From: Escherichia virus TH37
Sequence record: MT446409.1
Strand: one strand, 5' to 3'
Length of the DNA stretch: 53,453 nt
Of the stretch, positions 2,946 to 45,131 are shown one piece after another; positions within the stretch are counted from its first letter, which is position 1, and every line of letters begins with the position of its first letter. Under the pieces are notes generated by a model. That model was not told where the DNA came from. It saw only the letters and a program-made list of their open reading frames with translations, and searched no databases. The position numbers were made by a program, and so were the translations under genes.

Positions 2946-3506
2946 TTATTTATTTCCTAAATACTTATAAAATTTATGTCCGCCATAAGTTCCTCTTCCA
3001 ACAACTCTTTTGAAATTACATTTCTCTGTAGCTGTGCAGAAGTGGGTGGCATCGGTTACATCCGGAGCATCCAACAATGCGAAGTTAATTGCTACATTCA
3101 TGGTGTCCCAAACCTGTTTTGATTCAGTCTTCCAATTTGTTTTAACTATGTTCTTCCATTGAGCATTCTTCTTCTTTGCTTCTCTTGTCCAAGCAAACTG
3201 GTTGCGTTGATAAACTACATCGCAAACGGTGTTAGCGAATGGCTTCCCGAATTTGATTCGATTACGGACGACATTAGCTACCAGAATCTTTCCATGTTTG
3301 CTTTCTCCACGAGCTTCAAACCAAATTACTTTGGCATAGCATTCTATATCTTTGCGTTGAGAAATAGATAGTTTCGGATTTCCATTTAAATAAGATTGAC
3401 TTGCAAATTCTGTAATAGTGGCGTTCACTGCCCCAGCCGAAGCTGGGACATTTGCGTGAAACAGACTCACCAACAGAAATGCAAGAACTTGTGCTGAGGG
3501 CATCAT
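2946..3506 (-). CDS. Endolysin, SleB/Hydrolase_2-type cell wall hydrolase with N-terminal signal or SAR sequence
   Basis: N-terminal hydrophobic leader [26 protein letters not shown]; WFEARGE and [13 protein letters not shown] motifs; adjacent to holin-like gene. Confidence 0.6.
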
Positions 3507-3521: not shown

Positions 3522-3863
3522 TTATTTGGCCTTCTTAAACCAATTGAGTGGGTTGAGTTGTTTGATTGCAGCAGTGAAGCAATCTCGAATTGTGGTAATG
3601 ATTAGGTTAGCCCCAATCAAACCAATCACCATTGCGGCGATTGTGGCATAGCGCGGTTCATCTTTGAATATGTCCACGAAGCCTGGGAGGGAGAAAACGA
3701 ACGTACCAATGACCACACAAAGGAGGGCATCAAGAATAGCTTTCAGCAAGCCTTCCTTTTCATATGCCCCACGAATAAGTGCAGTCAATCCAGCCAGGAG
3801 TCCATGAAGAACTCCATACTGGTGCATTGCTTCCCAAACCATCTGGAAAGTTTGTCTATCCAT
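3522..3863 (-). CDS. Holin-like membrane protein (3 predicted TM segments, charged C-terminus)
   Basis: 113 aa, three hydrophobic stretches, C-terminal NWFKKAK, directly upstream of endolysin. Confidence 0.5.
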   Translation of the reverse strand: MDRQTFQMVWEAMHQYGVLHGLLAGLTALIRGAYEKEGLLKAILDALLCVVIGTFVFSLPGFVDIFKDEPRYATIAAMVIGLIGANLIITTIRDCFTAAIKQLNPLNWFKKAK

Positions 3864-13670: not shown

Positions 13671-16600
13671 TTATCTACGTTCCATTGCACCATTACCCAT
13701 GTTGATTGTTTGGGTAACAGTTTGACCGTTAGGAGTTGACACGGTTGCAGACGCTTGCTTGTTGTTCACAGTAGCTTTGACTTCAACGTTAACTACAGTG
13801 GCCTGGGTCTGACCATAAGACAGTCCATTTCTGGTGAAGCCAGTTGCACCTTCCGCAATAGAATCGCCCTGAGAAGCCCATTCACGGTACTTCTTGACGC
13901 GGTTCTGTGCCTGTAGAGGAACAGCATTGAGCCAGTCGGTTCCGTGTTTGTTGATAGCATCATCAACAGTTCCAGCACCATCCGTATACGCCGCCATAGC
14001 CTTCTCAGCGTCACCATTATAACGCTTGAGCATTGCATCGTAGTAGTCACGACCAACGCGAGCACGCTCTTCCAGAGAGTTATCACGGGCAGGTGTAACG
14101 CCAAATCCTGGGTCACGGGAAGTTGAATCAAGAACTTGCATACGACCTTTAGCACCAGTCGGTGATGTGACTACCGAACCGTCTGCGTTCAAATCGCGGT
14201 TCCCTGACTCTTCTCCTGCGATAAAGTCATAAACATTACGTTCTGCATCGGCTGCACCGTTGGAGGTCATACGCATCACTCTGGCTGCGTCACCGCCTGC
14301 CTCAATAAAGGTGCTGCCGTATGAGATTGCAGCTTGCGGAACAGCGTAACCAGGCAATACCCCAGCACGCTCCGTCTGCGCGATTCCTAGCTGTGCAACG
14401 CCTTCGGCATAGTTTGAGTCGGCCCCACGCTGAACGTTCTCCTGAGCCTCGCCCATGCTGTATTCTGTGCGGTCATAGGCACGAGCCATGCCGTCCAGTC
14501 CAGCCATTTGCATAGCGCCAGCGATACGCGCCTGACTCCAGCCCCGTTCCTGACCACGTTCACGCATTACCCGCGCTAAGGTCACAGGGTCGCCCTGTGC
14601 CTGCCTAATGTCGCCAATGGTGATAAGGCCACGGGTTCCCTGAACAATGTTCACAGCGCCGCTGGGGTCGCCATTTAGGAGGGTGTTATAGGCACTATGT
14701 GTGGTTTGATTCAGTCGGTTGGCTTGCTGGGAATTAAGTCCTAACATCTCCATGCCCTGTGACATAGAAGAGTATTCGTTAGGATTATTTACACCAGCAT
14801 CTAACGAATTGCCATAGAAGTCGTTCAGACCTTCCAGAGCTTCGTTACCAATTTGGGTAGCACCAATAGCCATACCAGCGACACGACCCCACGGAGTCAT
14901 CATCATGGCATTCATAGCGCCATTGGATAAAGAGCCAATACTGCCACCAGCTACGCCAGCAGCTAATGCCCCACCCATGCGACCGAAGTCATCGCCAAAA
15001 CTGCCACCAGCTTGCCACCCACGACGCCCACCACCGCCACCAGAACCACCACCGCTAATGCCATAGCTACTAGCATCAATGTTGTCCCAGAAGCCGCCTG
15101 AGCGCCCACCGTCGCCACCGCCGAAATCTGCATCCTGACCACGGAGCTTGTTTTCTTCCTGTGCTGCGAGGATACCTTTCTTAACTGACACTGCCATCAG
15201 GTCATTGCCAGTTGTGCTATCAGCGCCAACAGCAGAGGCTGTAGCAGCACCAACTCCAGCATCGGTACGGTTGCCTATGAATGGGTCATCAGGTGTGCCA
15301 GCAGCAGGAGAGTAGCCACGATTTGACCTCTGCTTAACATCCTTCCACAGGCCGTCACCAGTCATGGCAGCACGAGCACCCTTGATTAAATCATCATTGG
15401 ACAAGTCTGGATTAGCTTCAACAAACTCTCGACCAGCATTAAGACGACCAATAACAGAATCAATCTTATCTTTGTTGCGGTCGTACCATCCTTCATCCTT
15501 GTCAATCCACTCCGACTTCGTGGTATCGCCGATGGTTTGAGAAAACAATGCGCGCGAACGACCAGATACAAGCATCCCAAATTGAATTTGGTCCATGTAA
15601 TCTTTATGGTCACCCGCAGATAAGTTGGCAAACTTGCCAGCCCTTTGAGGGTTCTTGTGTTCCCAAATCGCGTCATCGCCGATAAGACCATCTGGGGAAT
15701 ACATGAACGACGGATAATTGTCATTTGTAATTGCGCCAGCTTGCTCAATGTCGAATCCAAATTCTTTGGCTACACGGTTACGAGCAATTTCTTCAGTTCG
15801 GTGACCAGCTTCGAACATTCTTTGGGTAAATTCGCTTGGTCCTTTTCCGCGTTGCAGGCCAACTTTATCAACCATTGCAGCCCAAGGTCTGGTATATTCG
15901 TTGTTGCCAAGGAATGAACCAACAGTTGAGCCTGTAATGTCATATTGTTTACGGAAGTCTAACCACTCCTGAGTACCCTGTTCCATATTATGAAACTTGA
16001 TTGGGCCTTGTTGTGGTTCAGGCTGAGGAACAGCGGAATCCAGGTTTGCGATTGCAATGCTCTCACGACGAGAGCGAGCAGAGTTCCAACTCGTTGGTGA
16101 ATCAAGCTGTGCAATAAACTCTGTAGATGGATTTAATTCAACAGGTCCAGTGTTTCTTAGACGTTCAGCAGGGTCGAAAGTCTTACTGATTTCAGCTTCA
16201 TTATATTGGTGAGCATTCTCAAGTACACCACGAATAGATGCACCAGAGTAACGAGGGTCATCACCAATATCTTTCTTTAGGTTGTCATAACCAGAACGAG
16301 CATCTGCAAGGTCTGTATAACGAGATGCAGAATCAAGAATCAAATCTCGGTCAGAAGATTGAGTGCGATATGCGTTCATCCCCCGTTCTGAACCACCAGC
16401 ATATACCTTAGCAGCAGATTTAACTACGCCAGATACATCTTGATATAAAGATTTACTTGCATCAGACCAACCTGGGGAGCCAGATAATGATGCAGATAAA
16501 GAATATTCAGCTTTAATGCCAGAACCCATAGAGCCTAAAGGTAGGCCAGATGCGTTAAGCGGTTGTCGGGGATGTTGAATATCACCAACAATAGATTCAG

Positions 16601-33413: not shown

Positions 33414-33686
33414 TTAATCCACTTGCAACATTGCAAGGCGGAAGTCATATCCAACTAATGCTTCGGACAGCTCTTCAATTGAAGTTGTTGCCGAGATTAA
33501 AGTTTGGAGGTTTTTGAATGTCTCATCGTTAAATGCTTGAGACTGTGGGTCAGACGAAGCGAACACCTCGCCCTTAATCTTTTCAAGGAACGCCATTACG
33601 GCGTCCTTTGCTGGAACTTCGGAATCAGCAGCAAACATATGGTGCTCTAATTCCTGCATATCGAAAATAGAATATACAGTTTGCAT
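33414..33686 (-). CDS. Hypothetical protein
   Basis: 90 aa co-oriented ORF. Confidence 0.3.
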   Translation of the reverse strand: MQTVYSIFDMQELEHHMFAADSEVPAKDAVMAFLEKIKGEVFASSDPQSQAFNDETFKNLQTLISATTSIEELSEALVGYDFRLAMLQVD

Positions 33687-38384: not shown

Positions 38385-39170
38385 GTTTCTCTCCAGTTAA
38401 ATTTAAGTAAGTGCCCTGACGTGGACTATTACGAACATTACAATAAATTGGCTTAAATGGTGTTTCCACTGCGGCCAAGACACTTATTAAATTTGATTCG
38501 AACCGCCCAAGTGAATCAACCTTGTTTATGGGGACCATCGGGGAAAAGTATAAACCCGCTTAATGCTCGCATCATGTTTGAACATTAAGAACCCTGACTT
38601 GCATATTTCATGTGAATAGGAACATAGTCTGGATTTTGAATCCAGCTAACTTCGAGAAGAGGAGTAGCTCAAACGAAAGCCTGAACTTTCTTTCGACACA
38701 TCACAATCAGCGCAACTGAGCCGTATCGCTACGGTATGCCAGACGCTAACTTGAGCCTTTTGAACAGAGGCATAACTGTTGGAGGAATTCTGTGGCCTTT
38801 ACGCGGCCAACGTGCCATTAATGCTGGCAAGACAGGGCTACCGTTCCCAAGCTCCCTTATCGCGGTAAATACGGACACTGTTTTAGGAAGTGACCACCTG
38901 AACGTCTCGTGTTCATTACGTTGACTTTACGGAGTCATCGGAGCTTCGTTCTCAAGCACACCGTTTTCTTCTTTGGCCGGTGTCAAGCCGCAAGCCTTTG
39001 TTTCGGTGGACTAACCTTCTCACACTAACGATGTGTAGCGGGACGTTCCAATCCTAGGAGGCAGCAATTTCAATTGTTATGCCCAGAGCAATTGCAGGAA
39101 TTACACCTGCCATGCTACAAGTAGCTAGAGTCTCGTTATTTAAAGTCGCGCACTCCCTCGACTTGTTCAC

Positions 39171-39380
39171 TCACTGTCGGGTAAGTTTCGAACACTTTTG
39201 TGCCCACGTTTCATTGTGGACTAAAATCTGGGTTTTGGTTTCGCGTGACAAAACTTTCACTTCTGCAACATCCAAATAGATCGGTTGTGCAATCAAGCAA
39301 TAATCACTTACGAACCCACTTTGAGAGCAACTCACTATCGACATTGCTATCAGAACTGCTAGACACTTCTTTCTGAACAT
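39171..39380 (-). CDS. Putative o-spanin (Rz1-like outer membrane lipoprotein), overlapping i-spanin in another frame
   Basis: Internal start MFRKKCLAVLIAMSIVSC with lipobox-like IVSC; starts inside and extends past the Rz-like ORF; weak SD. Confidence 0.3.
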   Translation of the reverse strand: MFRKKCLAVLIAMSIVSCSQSGFVSDYCLIAQPIYLDVAEVKVLSRETKTQILVHNETWAQKCSKLTRQ

Positions 39381-39540
39381 GCGATTTAATCTCGATAGAT
39401 TCTTTAATGGAATCGAATTGCTTCTCTTTGGCTTCCTGACGCTCCTCGGCTTTGCCTGAGCTTTTGCCTTTGAGGAACACTGCAATAATAATACCCAATG
39501 CAGTAAGGACGCCAAGAATAATTGACTTAAGCTGTTGCAT
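39304..39540 (-). CDS. Putative i-spanin (Rz-like): N-terminal TM plus charged periplasmic segment
   Basis: 78 aa; TM SIILGVLTALGIIIAVFL; SD AAGGTG upstream. Confidence 0.4.
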   Translation of the reverse strand: MQQLKSIILGVLTALGIIIAVFLKGKSSGKAEERQEAKEKQFDSIKESIEIKSHVQKEVSSSSDSNVDSELLSKWVRK

Positions 39541-39548
39541 GAATCACC

Positions 39549-39689
39549 TTAGATGGCGCACGCACCACTTGAACAGTCGTTATCACCAGCACCAGGAACG
39601 ATTGCTTCTTCGTCCTGCTTCTTCTTCAGTTCTTCAATTGCTTCTTCGGCAGCACCGAAGTCTAAGTTATCAAGTGCATCAAAATCCAT
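39549..39689 (-). CDS. Mini-ORF whose C-terminus matches the class Ia RNR alpha (NrdA) C-terminal redox tail
   Basis: 46 aa MDFDALDNLDFGAAEEAIEELKKKQDEEAIVPGAGDNDCSSGACAI; last 17 residues ~10/17 identical to E. coli NrdA ...LVPSIQDDGCESGACKI as recalled; GGAG SD upstream. Confidence 0.35.
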   Translation of the reverse strand: MDFDALDNLDFGAAEEAIEELKKKQDEEAIVPGAGDNDCSSGACAI

Positions 39690-39719
39690 AAGGACTCCAG
39701 TGTTGCGGGTTATTAAAGC

Positions 39720-39815
39720 TGGTGGACAAGGTTGGATTCGAACCAACGACACATCTGTCGAACAGATTGCTCTACCTGACTAAGCTCTGGAGCAGACCTT
39801 CTGAGCTACTCGTCC
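39720..39815 (-). tRNA. tRNA-like element (anticodon-like loop UCG), atypical: ~21-nt extra segment between acceptor stem and D-arm
   Basis: Minus-sense GGACGAG-TA-...-GCTTAGTCAGGTAGAGC-...GTTGG-TTCGAAT-CCAAC-CTTGTCC-A-CCA: 7-bp acceptor stem, canonical T-arm, encoded CCA, but 96 nt long. Confidence 0.4.
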
Positions 39816-40652
39816 GAATAAGGTGGGTTTTGGTAACGCAGGTTTTCCCGAACTGCGAGGCTTGTAGCAAGACAGCCGCATTACTTTGCGAATGCCAGCA
39901 GGATTGATGGTCCGACCGTCTTTGCTTAGGCAACCTGATTTAATCTACCTTTGTAGATACCATCGGTTAGAGCAGTTTATTTCCATGCCCAGGGCAACTC
40001 ACTTTAGGGTGAATTAGGTTACGCAGTGTAGCTTCGAAGTCGCTGCCACAGGCTTGAGATTCCTGTGTGGAGGGAAATCCAGAGGAGCACTTCCTCAAGG
40101 AGTTACGTTTCACATTGGCATAGCTTCTCACACTAAACCAATTGAAGACATTCCAGTGTGCTCGTCCGTCCTCCGGAAATATCCAACTGCATAATTAAGT
40201 TTGTACTCTGTCACATCCTACACGCGCGCTCTTAGGACTTAAACTGGCTTGCATCGCAGAATACAAATTAATTATTGCTCCGATTTATTAATCACATCTC
40301 GAAGCCACAATGCGCCAAATTTGGTTACATGGGATTGGAAGACCACGGAGAGGACTTAAATTTAATTAAGCCGCAACTCGCATTTCAGAATCATTTGCAT
40401 TTATTTTAAATGAATAAAACAGTCGCAATAACTTCAGGCAGTTTAGGCCCGTCGTAAGACTCAGAAAACTACTTCAATTTGTACACAACAAATTTCCCAA
40501 CATTGACCTCCGTCGAAGTCTCATGCGATGGTGTTTGGGTTATGCACAAATTGAAGCCCACTCACTCGGAATGGGATTCAAGGCAGCACCGGAAATCTTC
40601 CAGTGCGTGCCAGATCGATTTAGCTTAGCTTCTCAAGTTTGCTCTTGGCAAC

Positions 40653-44254: not shown

Positions 44255-44764
44255 CTAGATTTTGTTTATGTATGCAAACTCGCCATGATACCTGAGTGCA
44301 GCAGCATTGTACGCCCTTGCCGCATCTTCTGGAGTATTGAAAGTGCCAAGGCATCTTCTTACACCATTCTCGGATATTCTGGCAACGTACTTGCCTCTAC
44401 TGCTTTTGTGGACACCTTTGTATCCAGAGGTGTTGGAGGTCGACACTCCTACGTTCATCAAGTTTTGTTTTGCAGACACATCACGAAGATTCTCAATTCT
44501 GTTGTTAAGGATATTCCTATCAACATGGTCTATAATCTTTGGGATATACCCATGATGTAGCCAGAATACTATCTGGTGAGCTTTCCATTTTGTACCTTCG
44601 ACAGATACTCTTAAGTACCCATCACTACACACATACCCAGCAACGTCTCCCGTACGAGCTTTTGGGCTAGTGGTTTGGGTTCGAATAAGGTTGCCCGTTT
44701 CTGGGCAATACCTTAAATATTTATCGAACCTTGGATTATTTCGGGAGTTCGAAATGAGGTGCAT
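44255..44764 (-). CDS. HNH-AP2 homing endonuclease
   Basis: 169 aa; HNH_3-like GYLRV...HQIVFWLHHG...IDHVDRN and AP2-like GYKGVHK...GKYVARI...GTFNTPEDAARAYN. Confidence 0.65.
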   Translation of the reverse strand: MHLISNSRNNPRFDKYLRYCPETGNLIRTQTTSPKARTGDVAGYVCSDGYLRVSVEGTKWKAHQIVFWLHHGYIPKIIDHVDRNILNNRIENLRDVSAKQNLMNVGVSTSNTSGYKGVHKSSRGKYVARISENGVRRCLGTFNTPEDAARAYNAAALRYHGEFAYINKI

Positions 44765-45131
44765 CCAAGAATTTAGCCCATTTAATAGGTTCTTCGTAGT
44801 GGGATAGCCACGTCGCCCCCCACCGTATAGTAATTCCCAATTCCTGTGCTGCCGAAAACATATGTTTAGCTAAAATTCTAAACCGTTCGAGGTCATTCCA
44901 GTCAATTGGATATGGTGCAATGTCCAAAGCGTTGCCTGACATGTGTCGGCTAACAGAAACTTTGGTTGCACCCTGCTTTAAAAGCTCTTGTTGACGTTCA
45001 TAAGAGCGTAAACCTTCCAGAACAGTTACATCAAAAGGCATGGTTTCACATGCCCGTTTGAAAACTGCCACTAATGAAGGATTTACTCCCTTAAGTCGGT
45101 CTAAAGAACGTTGGCCGAGCTTAACATTCAT
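44736..45131 (-). CDS. Peptidase M15 / LAS-family zinc peptidoglycan peptidase
   Basis: 131 aa; SRHMSGNALDIAP and DAPHFEL zinc-binding motifs. Confidence 0.55.
   Translation of the reverse strand: MNVKLGQRSLDRLKGVNPSLVAVFKRACETMPFDVTVLEGLRSYERQQELLKQGATKVSVSRHMSGNALDIAPYPIDWNDLERFRILAKHMFSAAQELGITIRWGATWLSHYEEPIKWAKFLDAPHFELPK

Follow-up and report, generated by a model that had tools for sequence, protein, structure and literature searches.

The two genes lying at positions 39171..39540 on the minus strand of the window (the 53,453 nucleotides of the Escherichia virus TH37 record MT446409.1, analysed over their full length) very probably encode a two-component spanin of the compact family PHROG 1026 and 1275. 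The spanin pair is correct, ordinary and already known. An overlapped spanin can be recognised from the sequence alone, and the Rz/Rz1-type reading had been proposed in an earlier note on this DNA; it was borne out by the matches to the PHROG profiles, by the gene context of homologues in other phages and by the conservation of the overlap between the two genes. The pair was judged by the properties used by Summer 2007 and Kongari 2018 to define two-component spanins, among them a single N-terminal transmembrane segment in the i-spanin, a lipoprotein signal and periplasmic cysteines in the o-spanin, and adjacency of the genes.

The phage phiEcoM-GJ1 is present among the overlapped two-component spanins of the 2018 SpaninDB (Kongari et al. 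2018, PMC6139136). In Table S4 of that study its i-spanin is placed at 14724-14961 and its o-spanin at 14884-15094, with an overlap of 77 and frame +1, and tables S2 and S3 give lengths of 78 and 69 aa, together with a predicted periplasmic domain of 55 aa, 64% helix and one coiled coil at residues 26-58 (PMC6139136). The comparison with spanin databases, suggested in the earlier note as a check, retrieved the pair there, the lengths, overlap and frame given for phiEcoM-GJ1 being equal to those of the window (PMC6139136). The phiEcoM-GJ1 pair (gp31 and an o-spanin that is unannotated in RefSeq) and the Mangalitsa gp37/gp38 pair are orthologues of the window pair, with 91-100% amino-acid identity. 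They share with it the lengths, the 77-nt overlap, the +1 frame and the genomic position, and differ from it by few amino-acid substitutions and structurally not at all. Both genes are annotated as 'Rz-like spanin' in the Mangalitsa RefSeq record, BSBP01 and 2KOFFS, and as i-/o-spanin in 4HA13.

The i-spanin gene (39304..39540, minus strand, from the ATG at 39540 to the stop at 39304) encodes a protein of 78 aa and was recognised as an ORF, by its match to phrog_1026, by hydropathy, by an AlphaFold2 model and through SpaninDB. Its Shine-Dalgarno sequence AAGGTG (39545..39550, minus strand), read directly from the sequence, overlaps the stop codon of an upstream 46-aa ORF, and the ATG follows 5 nt beyond. 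The protein begins with MQQLKSIILGVLTALGIIIAVFLKGKSSGK, and its residues 6-23 form an uncharged hydrophobic core, with a Kyte-Doolittle maximum of 2.96, followed by a conserved KGKSSGK motif and a serine- and charge-rich tail. Its parts are a membrane anchor, the KGKSSGK motif, a helical, charged and putatively periplasmic domain, and a conserved C-terminal D..EL..W.R. In a single-sequence AlphaFold2 model (mean pLDDT 75.8) helices are found at 3-26 (transmembrane), 31-60 (long) and 67-77. Core and model agree on a single N-terminal transmembrane segment, as had been claimed for this 78-aa protein. The phrog_1026 'Rz-like spanin' profile was matched with E = 6.1e-20, residues 1-78 aligning to profile positions 4-84 of 85. 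The protein contains no cysteine. By a simple rule its charge-difference count is 0, which favours neither orientation, as it also is for lambda Rz; the count is +2 to +3, favouring C-in, for the i-spanins of AF, mEp390, PdC23 and Shewanella 1/40.

Across 45 related records the i-spanin is 91-100% identical in all but one and 82% identical in the remaining one. A tblastn search brought up relatives with 31-37% identity in four further phages of the Chaseviridae type as well as in AF, the AF match being weak (31%). The i-spanins of mEp390, PdC23 and Shewanella 1/40 resemble it by eye only, in the transmembrane helix, a G+SSGK-like motif and the C-terminal D.EL..W.R. The transmembrane helix, the KG+SSGK motif and the D.EL..W.R terminus are the common features of the i-spanin family.

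The o-spanin gene (39171..39380, minus strand, from the ATG at 39380 to the stop at 39171) encodes a precursor of 69 aa and a mature protein of 52 aa, and was recognised as an ORF, by its lipobox, by its match to phrog_1275 and by tblastn. The start codon is preceded by a weak Shine-Dalgarno sequence, GAG. The precursor begins with MFRKKCLAVLIAMSIVSC, followed by SQSG. The signal MFRKKCLAVLIAMSIVS before Cys18 comprises a basic n-region, an uncharged h-region and the lipobox IVSC, with Ser at position +2. The lipoprotein signal was judged by rule: the sequence matches both the [LVI][ASTVI][GAS]C pattern and the CPT pattern and has no Asp at +2. The mature protein contains two further cysteines, Cys11 and Cys46, both predicted to be periplasmic. 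These and the lipobox cysteine are invariant in all 11 aligned homologues, which represent several phage groups as well as two uncultivated viral contigs and which share a PI...Q(I/V)..(H)N/D..W...C pattern. Since the i-spanin lacks cysteine, any disulfide links would join o-spanin homodimers, as in T4. An AlphaFold2 model of the o-spanin alone (pLDDT 52) was uninformative.

The phrog_1275 'Rz-like spanin' profile was matched with E = 2e-18, residues 1-67 aligning to profile positions 4-73 of 81. A tblastn search with the o-spanin gave matches in 78 phage records, including the lysis cassettes of mEp390, AF and PdC23. The protein is 95-100% identical within the genus (45 records), and is better conserved than the i-spanin; in other genera and in unrelated phages the identity is 30-51%. 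In all homologues that could be extracted, a start codon yields a signal peptide ending in the lipobox cysteine.

The spanin function was assigned because of the gene context in other phages. The pairs gp51/gp52 of mEp390, gp21/gp22 of AF and gp29/gp30 of PdC23 belong to the same two protein families, with o-spanins 36-39% identical to that of the window and with overlapping or adjacent genes. In the lambdoid coliphage mEp390 the gene order is holin, holin, endolysin, i-spanin homologue and o-spanin homologue, in Pseudomonas phage AF endolysin, i-spanin and o-spanin, and in Pantoea phage PdC23 holin, i-spanin and o-spanin. These three pairs lie in a canonical lysis cassette, right after the endolysin or holin, whereas the window pair is about 35 kb away. 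Scans against Pfam and NCBIfam gave no relevant family for either protein (for Pfam, no spanin-related family at E <= 1). The pair falls outside the sequence families of lambda Rz/Rz1 (Phage_lysis and Rz1 in Pfam).

That homologues directly follow an endolysin or holin gene in the unrelated phages mEp390, AF and PdC23 also bears on a different reading of the pair, as an envelope-modifying or superinfection-exclusion module rather than a lysis device. In the superinfection-exclusion version an early lipoprotein would act with an inner-membrane partner, like T5 Llp or the Cor-type lipoproteins. The early/middle genome location of the genes, a long way from the holin, would suit such a role, and no published experiments on any member of this spanin family were found in the literature. 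In Mangalitsa, moreover, the same island contains, about 500 nt upstream, a T4 Imm-like gene ('immunity to superinfection'), but this gene is absent from the window, and its linkage with the spanins is therefore not conserved. Overlapping genes for a transmembrane protein and a lipoprotein are, on the other hand, the spanin signature. The phage has a holin, two endolysins and a Gram-negative host, yet offers no other spanin candidate: no rival was found near the holin, and the o-spanin is the only ORF with a lipoprotein signal on the coding strand. We consider an exclusion module very improbable.

The spanin pair follows the same logic as P2 LysB/LysC and lambda Rz/Rz1, namely a type II inner-membrane protein combined with a lipoprotein of the outer membrane, the latter encoded in the +1 frame, and the P2 pair is 'overlapped' like that of the window (PMC6139136). 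The P2 and lambda spanins have no detectable sequence similarity to the window proteins, which are much shorter. Lambda Rz has 153 aa, compared with 78 aa for the window i-spanin. Lambda Rz1 is fully embedded and proline-rich, whereas the window o-spanin lacks any proline-rich stretch, its mature chain containing only one Pro, and has two conserved cysteines. In T4 the spanin genes PseT.3/PseT.2 have no linkage to the genes of the holin (t) and endolysin (e), as in the window, and periplasmic cysteines, conserved and needed, occur in the o-spanin only, which is also where the window pair has them (PMC6139136). The T4 genes are 'separated' and belong to other sequence families, while those of the window overlap.

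Functional statements on the pair are made by analogy with lambda Rz/Rz1, the model for which is summarised in PMC6139136, and it is in this way that we infer i-spanin topology, lipidation, complex formation, membrane fusion and the timing of expression. With its N-terminal helix the 78-aa i-spanin would be held in the inner membrane, while a mostly helical domain of about 54 residues would extend into the periplasm. The 69-aa precursor would be lipidated at Cys18 and then cleaved by signal peptidase II, and the mature o-spanin would be sorted to the outer membrane because its +2 residue is Ser and not Asp. The C-terminal regions of the two proteins may then pair up through the peptidoglycan mesh, and the complexes would build up harmlessly during infection. 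After the holin has fired and an endolysin has removed the peptidoglycan, they would oligomerise and bring about fusion of the inner with the outer membrane, so that the last barrier to release would be gone. Lambda spanins are inert until the cell wall is degraded. If the same holds here, the spanins would therefore need neither co-location nor co-timing with the holin and endolysin.

The predicted periplasmic parts of the two proteins together comprise about 106 residues, toward the short end of the range of 62-300 reported for spanins (PMC6139136). This short length, and the presence of two different endolysins, one of them with an export signal, could also be expected if the genes were spanin-derived but dispensable, the outer membrane being broken otherwise, for instance through the membrane-active tail of an endolysin or through a disruptin-like peptide. 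Throughout the genus and the family, however, the two genes show purifying selection, and the genomic position is kept across at least four genera. Dispensable spanins appear to us even slightly less probable than an exclusion module. As functional spanins, the compact pair (78 + 52 residues, KG+SSGK, cysteines only in the o-spanin) would make a convenient minimal model of membrane fusion, an idea that is not new.

The o-spanin gene starts 160 nt into the i-spanin gene, in the +1 frame, and runs 133 nt past its end. The zone coding in both frames (39304..39380, minus strand, 77 nt) specifies the i-spanin's C-terminus together with the signal peptide of the o-spanin, and was characterised by substitution counts and by comparison with Table S4. 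The earlier note had described an embedded out-of-frame lipoprotein ORF with the lipobox IVSC. The lipobox and the frame were confirmed; the arrangement is 'overlapped' in the spanin nomenclature rather than 'embedded', because the second gene shares 77 nt with the first and then extends 133 nt beyond it. Within the spanin family the length of the overlap varies from 4 nt (4HA13 and Faunus) to the 77 nt of the window. Among seven distinct genomes of the genus, 39 variable sites were counted in the 370-nt locus, 24 in the part coding for the i-spanin only and 15, mostly third codon positions, in the part coding for the o-spanin only. None fell into the 77-nt overlap, where the density of the 293 flanking nt predicts about 10. 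This absence of substitutions fits a simultaneous constraint on both frames.

A rule-based scan for lipoboxes in all six frames gave one candidate on the coding strand, the o-spanin, and four weak ones on the other strand. Since shuffled genomes contain about 2.6 candidates each, the lipobox alone does not go beyond chance; the spanin pair does go beyond chance, because of its homology and conservation. The reading in which the 78-aa gene alone is real and the lipoprotein ORF a chance frame, to which these shuffled counts, the weak Shine-Dalgarno sequence and the missing annotation of the second ORF in several public records (including the GJ1 RefSeq) would lend some colour, is refuted by the comparative data and keeps next to no probability, as the 69-aa product exceeds the i-spanin in conservation over the 45 records, its homologues in other phage groups retain the same signal, the lipobox cysteine and the two further cysteines at 30-51% identity, they persist where the genes barely overlap (the 4 nt of 4HA13 and Faunus), and both the PHROG match (E = 2e-18) and the substitution-free overlap speak for a real gene. 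Many public Chaseviridae records miss or mislabel the spanins: several omit the o-spanin, and several name the i-spanin 'endolysin'.

Over the 1.1 kb around the spanin locus, the window shares 92-97% identity with about 47 phage records that belong to the phiEcoM-GJ1 group (Chaseviridae, Carltongylesvirus), whose genomes measure 51-56 kb. Because of this match the window is essentially a whole genome of that group, presented in reverse complement relative to the usual orientation. All its long ORFs lie on the minus strand. The spanin pair has the early genes on one side and the replication genes on the other, and is about 35 kb from the holin. The same detached position, at a short distance upstream of thyX and the primase-helicase gene, was found in the genera Sabourvirus, Suwonvirus and Faunusvirus, as exemplified by the phages 4HA13, PM1 and Faunus, and is kept in at least four genera. 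The distance of the spanins from the other lysis genes is normal in Chaseviridae. A scan for sigma-70 promoters and intrinsic terminators around the spanin genes gave no excess over shuffled sequences, and a position weight matrix derived from the nine phage promoters annotated in GJ1 had no match directly before them. The nearest matches to this matrix lie at 41087-41068 upstream and at 33463 downstream of the spanins, from which it can be deduced that the pair is probably co-transcribed with the replication genes.

Four statements of the earlier note on the genome layout could be compared with these results and with the Pfam and PHROG searches. It had placed the pair about 35 kb from the holin and endolysin, had pointed out an M15 peptidase in the early region as a second peptidoglycan hydrolase, and had concluded that the lysis functions are split over three loci; all of this was confirmed, the M15 gene being on the minus strand and the three loci being those of the holin with a SleB-like endolysin, of the spanins, and of a T5-type M15 endolysin. 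It had also located the pair in a mid-genome non-coding island. The region at about 38385-40650 is indeed poor in ORFs, but it is not empty, as it contains conserved RNA elements.

The holin (113 aa; 3522..3863, minus strand) has two strongly hydrophobic segments and matched Pfam Phage_holin_3_1 (E = 3.7e-9) and the holin/anti-holin profile phrog_126 (E = 2.8e-19). It is adjoined by the first endolysin (186 aa; 2946..3506, minus strand), a SleB-type hydrolase (Pfam Hydrolase_2, E = 1.2e-15; phrog_938 endolysin) with a signal- or SAR-like segment at its N-terminus. Its orthologues Mangalitsa gp80 and ST32 ORF78 are annotated as endolysin. The second endolysin (131 aa; 44736..45131, minus strand), situated in the early region, is an M15 L-alanyl-D-glutamate peptidase of the T5 type (Peptidase_M15_4, E = 1.5e-7; phrog_465 endolysin, E = 1.7e-52), and inspection of its N-terminus revealed no export signal. 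Its orthologues Mangalitsa gp22, GJ1 gp21 and ST32 ORF24 are also annotated as endolysin, and that of GJ1 has been aligned with the T5 and RB49 enzymes (PMC10487532). In the annotation of Mangalitsa all three loci can be found, as gp22 (T5-like endolysin), gp37/gp38 (spanins) and gp79 holin/gp80 endolysin; in that of ST32 the lysis genes are ORF24, ORF77 and ORF78. The three-locus layout is real and already annotated, and T4 is its classic precedent.

The flanks of the spanin genes within the ORF-poor island are 91-95% identical to GJ1 and Mangalitsa, with no reading frame kept, and the GJ1 'gp30' is interrupted by stop codons in the window. Between 4HA13 and the window the flanks have 88-90% nucleotide identity, compared with 35-45% amino-acid identity for the spanins; the island flanks are far more conserved between genera than the spanin proteins. 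The 961-nt stretch upstream of the spanins folds much better than its shuffles (z = -6.2, 20 shuffles), whereas the fold of the downstream flank (38390-39170, minus strand) is no better than those of its shuffles (z = -1.15).

An unannotated, structured, tmRNA-like RNA was noticed about 750 nt upstream of the spanins, and a tRNA-like element and the 46-aa ORF sit between the two. The tRNA-like element (39716-39812, minus strand), with an encoded CCA and an A3-U70 pair, corresponds to the GJ1 feature 'tRNA-Arg, may contain an intron'; ARAGORN called it Leu in GJ1 and made no call in the window. The 46-aa ORF upstream of the i-spanin is acidic and is conserved, with a C-terminal NDCxxxC.I, in Faunus and in Aeromonas phage phiA050. 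A tblastn search with this ORF found it within the genus only, and an IMG/VR scan with a three-sequence alignment found it in GJ1 and Mangalitsa only.

The tmRNA-like RNA (40263-40466, minus strand) has a conserved core of about 150 nt at about 40276-40410, with a tag frame ANDSEMRVAA. The core contains AUAAAU, followed by GCA AAU GAU UCU GAA AUG CGA GUU GCG GCU UAA, and resembles the mRNA-like domain of a tmRNA in its GCA resume-type codon, 10-codon tag and UAA stop. The E. coli tmRNA tag is ANDENYALAA. Copies of the core with 70-87% identity occur in further Chaseviridae genera as well as in unrelated phages (Ackermannviridae, N4-like Schitoviridae, a Klebsiella phage and an Acinetobacter phage), and no record inspected had an annotated feature there. 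A two-part exact pattern of the core was present in at least 120 IMG/VR contigs, and the 10-codon frame, AN[DE]......A ending in AA, VA or AVA, was intact in all 134 extracted elements (82 distinct cores). That the IMG/VR matches could be host ssrA genes at prophage borders was considered and rejected, since ARAGORN found no tmRNA there and lytic phages carry the element. With the copy of Klebsiella phage VLCpiS13b as the blastn query, 781 phage records were matched, Felixounavirus and Kuttervirus-type phages among them.

A hand-drawn structure, in which a helix surrounds the stop codon and two pseudoknots covary, was 93% paired on an alignment of 21 sequences, compared with 25-48% in slid controls. 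Compensatory changes were found in 15 of its 23 pairs, and none of 500 shuffles reached the observed score. Over the tag region, Rfam gave sub-threshold matches only, to the permuted, alpha and beta tmRNA models, and ARAGORN made no tmRNA call in the window or in 30 sampled loci. When the region from -400 to +800 nt of 138 elements was searched for a tRNA-like domain with G3.U70 and CCA, the FelixO1-like phage wV8 was the only case in which one was detected beside the element, and there an 82-nt domain (CGGGGCG...CGCCUCG-A-CCA), with G3.U70 and ACCA, lies 47 nt downstream; no tRNA-like domain with alanine identity was detected for the RNA of the window. The element is probably a tmRNA derivative, which in the window has no recognisable acceptor domain.

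In the literature consulted, phage ssrA genes are listed only for mycobacteriophages, Bacillus phage G and DS6A (PMC4131195), and one detected by ARAGORN was reported in the genome announcement of the FelixO1-like Citrobacter phage Moogle (PMC4319497). In view of the Moogle report and of the tRNA-like domain in wV8, part of the present finding is perhaps already known. We tentatively propose, with rather less than even confidence, that the spanin island is an RNA-gene island and that the tmRNA-like RNA serves or subverts trans-translation through an undescribed architecture. If so, it might be a two-piece molecule, a differently permuted one or a decoy, and hundreds of well-studied enterobacterial phages would carry an unannotated ribosome-rescue element. 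The tmRNA-like RNA may matter more than the spanin pair and merits a separate look. By reading of the sequences, several of its copies have a good sigma-70 promoter just upstream.

About 750 nt upstream of the spanin genes, the minus strand of the window carries an unannotated structured RNA (40263-40466) that resembles the mRNA-like domain of tmRNA. It includes a tag frame on the same strand, running from a resume-type GCA at 40398 to the TAA at 40366, whose 10 codons specify ANDSEMRVAA and are followed by UAA. The structure, composed of a stop-codon helix and two pseudoknots, is backed by covariation, with 93% pairing and compensatory changes at 15 of the 23 pairs; none of 500 shuffles matched its score. 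Neither ARAGORN nor Rfam called this RNA in the window, and a search of the window for an acceptor domain with a G3.U70 pair found none.

DNA similar to the tmRNA-like element was present in 781 phage records, including Ackermannviridae, Felixounavirus, N4-like phages and Chaseviridae, as well as in at least 120 IMG/VR contigs. A 10-codon frame of the form AN[DE]......A was kept in all 134 copies examined. The copy in Escherichia phage wV8, a FelixO1-like phage (locus L151, NC_012749.1, positions 1204-1320), encodes the tag ANDNVFLAVA and is preceded by a sigma-70-like promoter. It is followed, after 47 nt, by an 82-nt tRNA-like domain (1365-1446 of the same locus) with G3.U70, A73 and an encoded CCA, which was not reported by ARAGORN. 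Taken together, the wV8 element and this domain resemble a tmRNA in which the acceptor domain forms a contiguous 3' module. An ssrA gene has been reported in a related phage, Moogle (PMC4319497).

The window also contains a tRNA-like element on the minus strand (39716-39812), with an encoded CCA, a good T-arm and a D-arm region longer by approximately 20 nt. The anticodon loop is short, positions 3 and 70 form an A-U pair, and the Rfam tRNA score of 27.9 bits lies slightly below the 29-bit threshold. The counterpart in phiEcoM-GJ1 (GJ1) is annotated as 'tRNA-Arg, may contain an intron'; ARAGORN designated the counterparts in GJ1 and ST32 as Leu(CAG) and made no call for the element in the window or in Mangalitsa. 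In other phages and prophages (comparison loci L024, L026, L029, L032-L037 and others), repeated modules were observed downstream and upstream of the tmRNA-like element, each consisting of a long helix, CACAACAGGUAAGAGCAUUG ... CAGUGCUCUUUCCGUUGUG, around a variable insert. The T-arm-like motif GGUUCGAnUCC is present in some of them. The modules have the appearance of tRNA-like units in which the acceptor stem is extended.

On either side of the spanin genes, the ORF-free flanks (38385-39170 and 39813-40650) share 91-95% identity with GJ1 and Mangalitsa and 75-90% with other genera (4HA13, Faunus), a conservation much higher than that of the spanin proteins, which are only 35-50% identical at the amino-acid level. 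The ORFs annotated by relatives within these flanks are not conserved. The 961 nt upstream of the spanin genes gave a folding z-score of -6.2, whereas the downstream flank showed no such signal (z = -1.15). Immediately upstream of the tmRNA-like element lies an 18-bp inverted repeat (40472-40556), 89% complementary with a 49-nt loop and a local fold z-score of approximately -4 on the minus strand, and equivalent long hairpins also precede the element in other Chaseviridae. In a comparison of the window at approximately 39930-40120 with locus L001 at 3535-3789, the island of Mangalitsa was seen to contain an 'immunity to superinfection' gene resembling T4 Imm, whereas the corresponding site in the window and in GJ1 is occupied by unrelated, ORF-free sequence; the island is therefore mosaic.

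A 46-aa acidic ORF on the minus strand (39549-39689; MDFDALDNLDFGAAEEAIEELKKKQDEEAIVPGAGDNDCSSGACAI), the stop codon of which overlaps the i-spanin Shine-Dalgarno sequence, is 93-100% identical across all 45 records of the genus and had no match in Pfam, PHROG or NCBIfam. Diverged copies, retaining the C-terminal NDCxxxC[KA]I, lie immediately 5' of the i-spanin gene in Erwinia phage Faunus and Aeromonas phage phiA050; none was seen in 4HA13 or PM1.

The window encodes two endolysins of different type, both on the minus strand: a SleB-type hydrolase (2946-3506), which adjoins the holin gene and has a signal- or SAR-like N-terminus, and a T5-type M15 peptidase without export signal in the early region (44736-45131).

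Annotation problems were noted in the records of PYps3T/4T/16T/16N/23T, PO103-1, Pel53, GJ1, SA91KD and others. The i-spanin is mislabelled 'endolysin' or 'L-alanyl-D-glutamate peptidase' in several public records, the o-spanin lacks annotation in many, including the GJ1 RefSeq, and in the PM1 RefSeq the annotated o-spanin start falls within the signal peptide. PP952070, 'Staphylococcus phage Pel53', is a Carltongylesvirus-like genome with spanin genes, the presence of which makes no sense for its stated Gram-positive host, S. hyicus.
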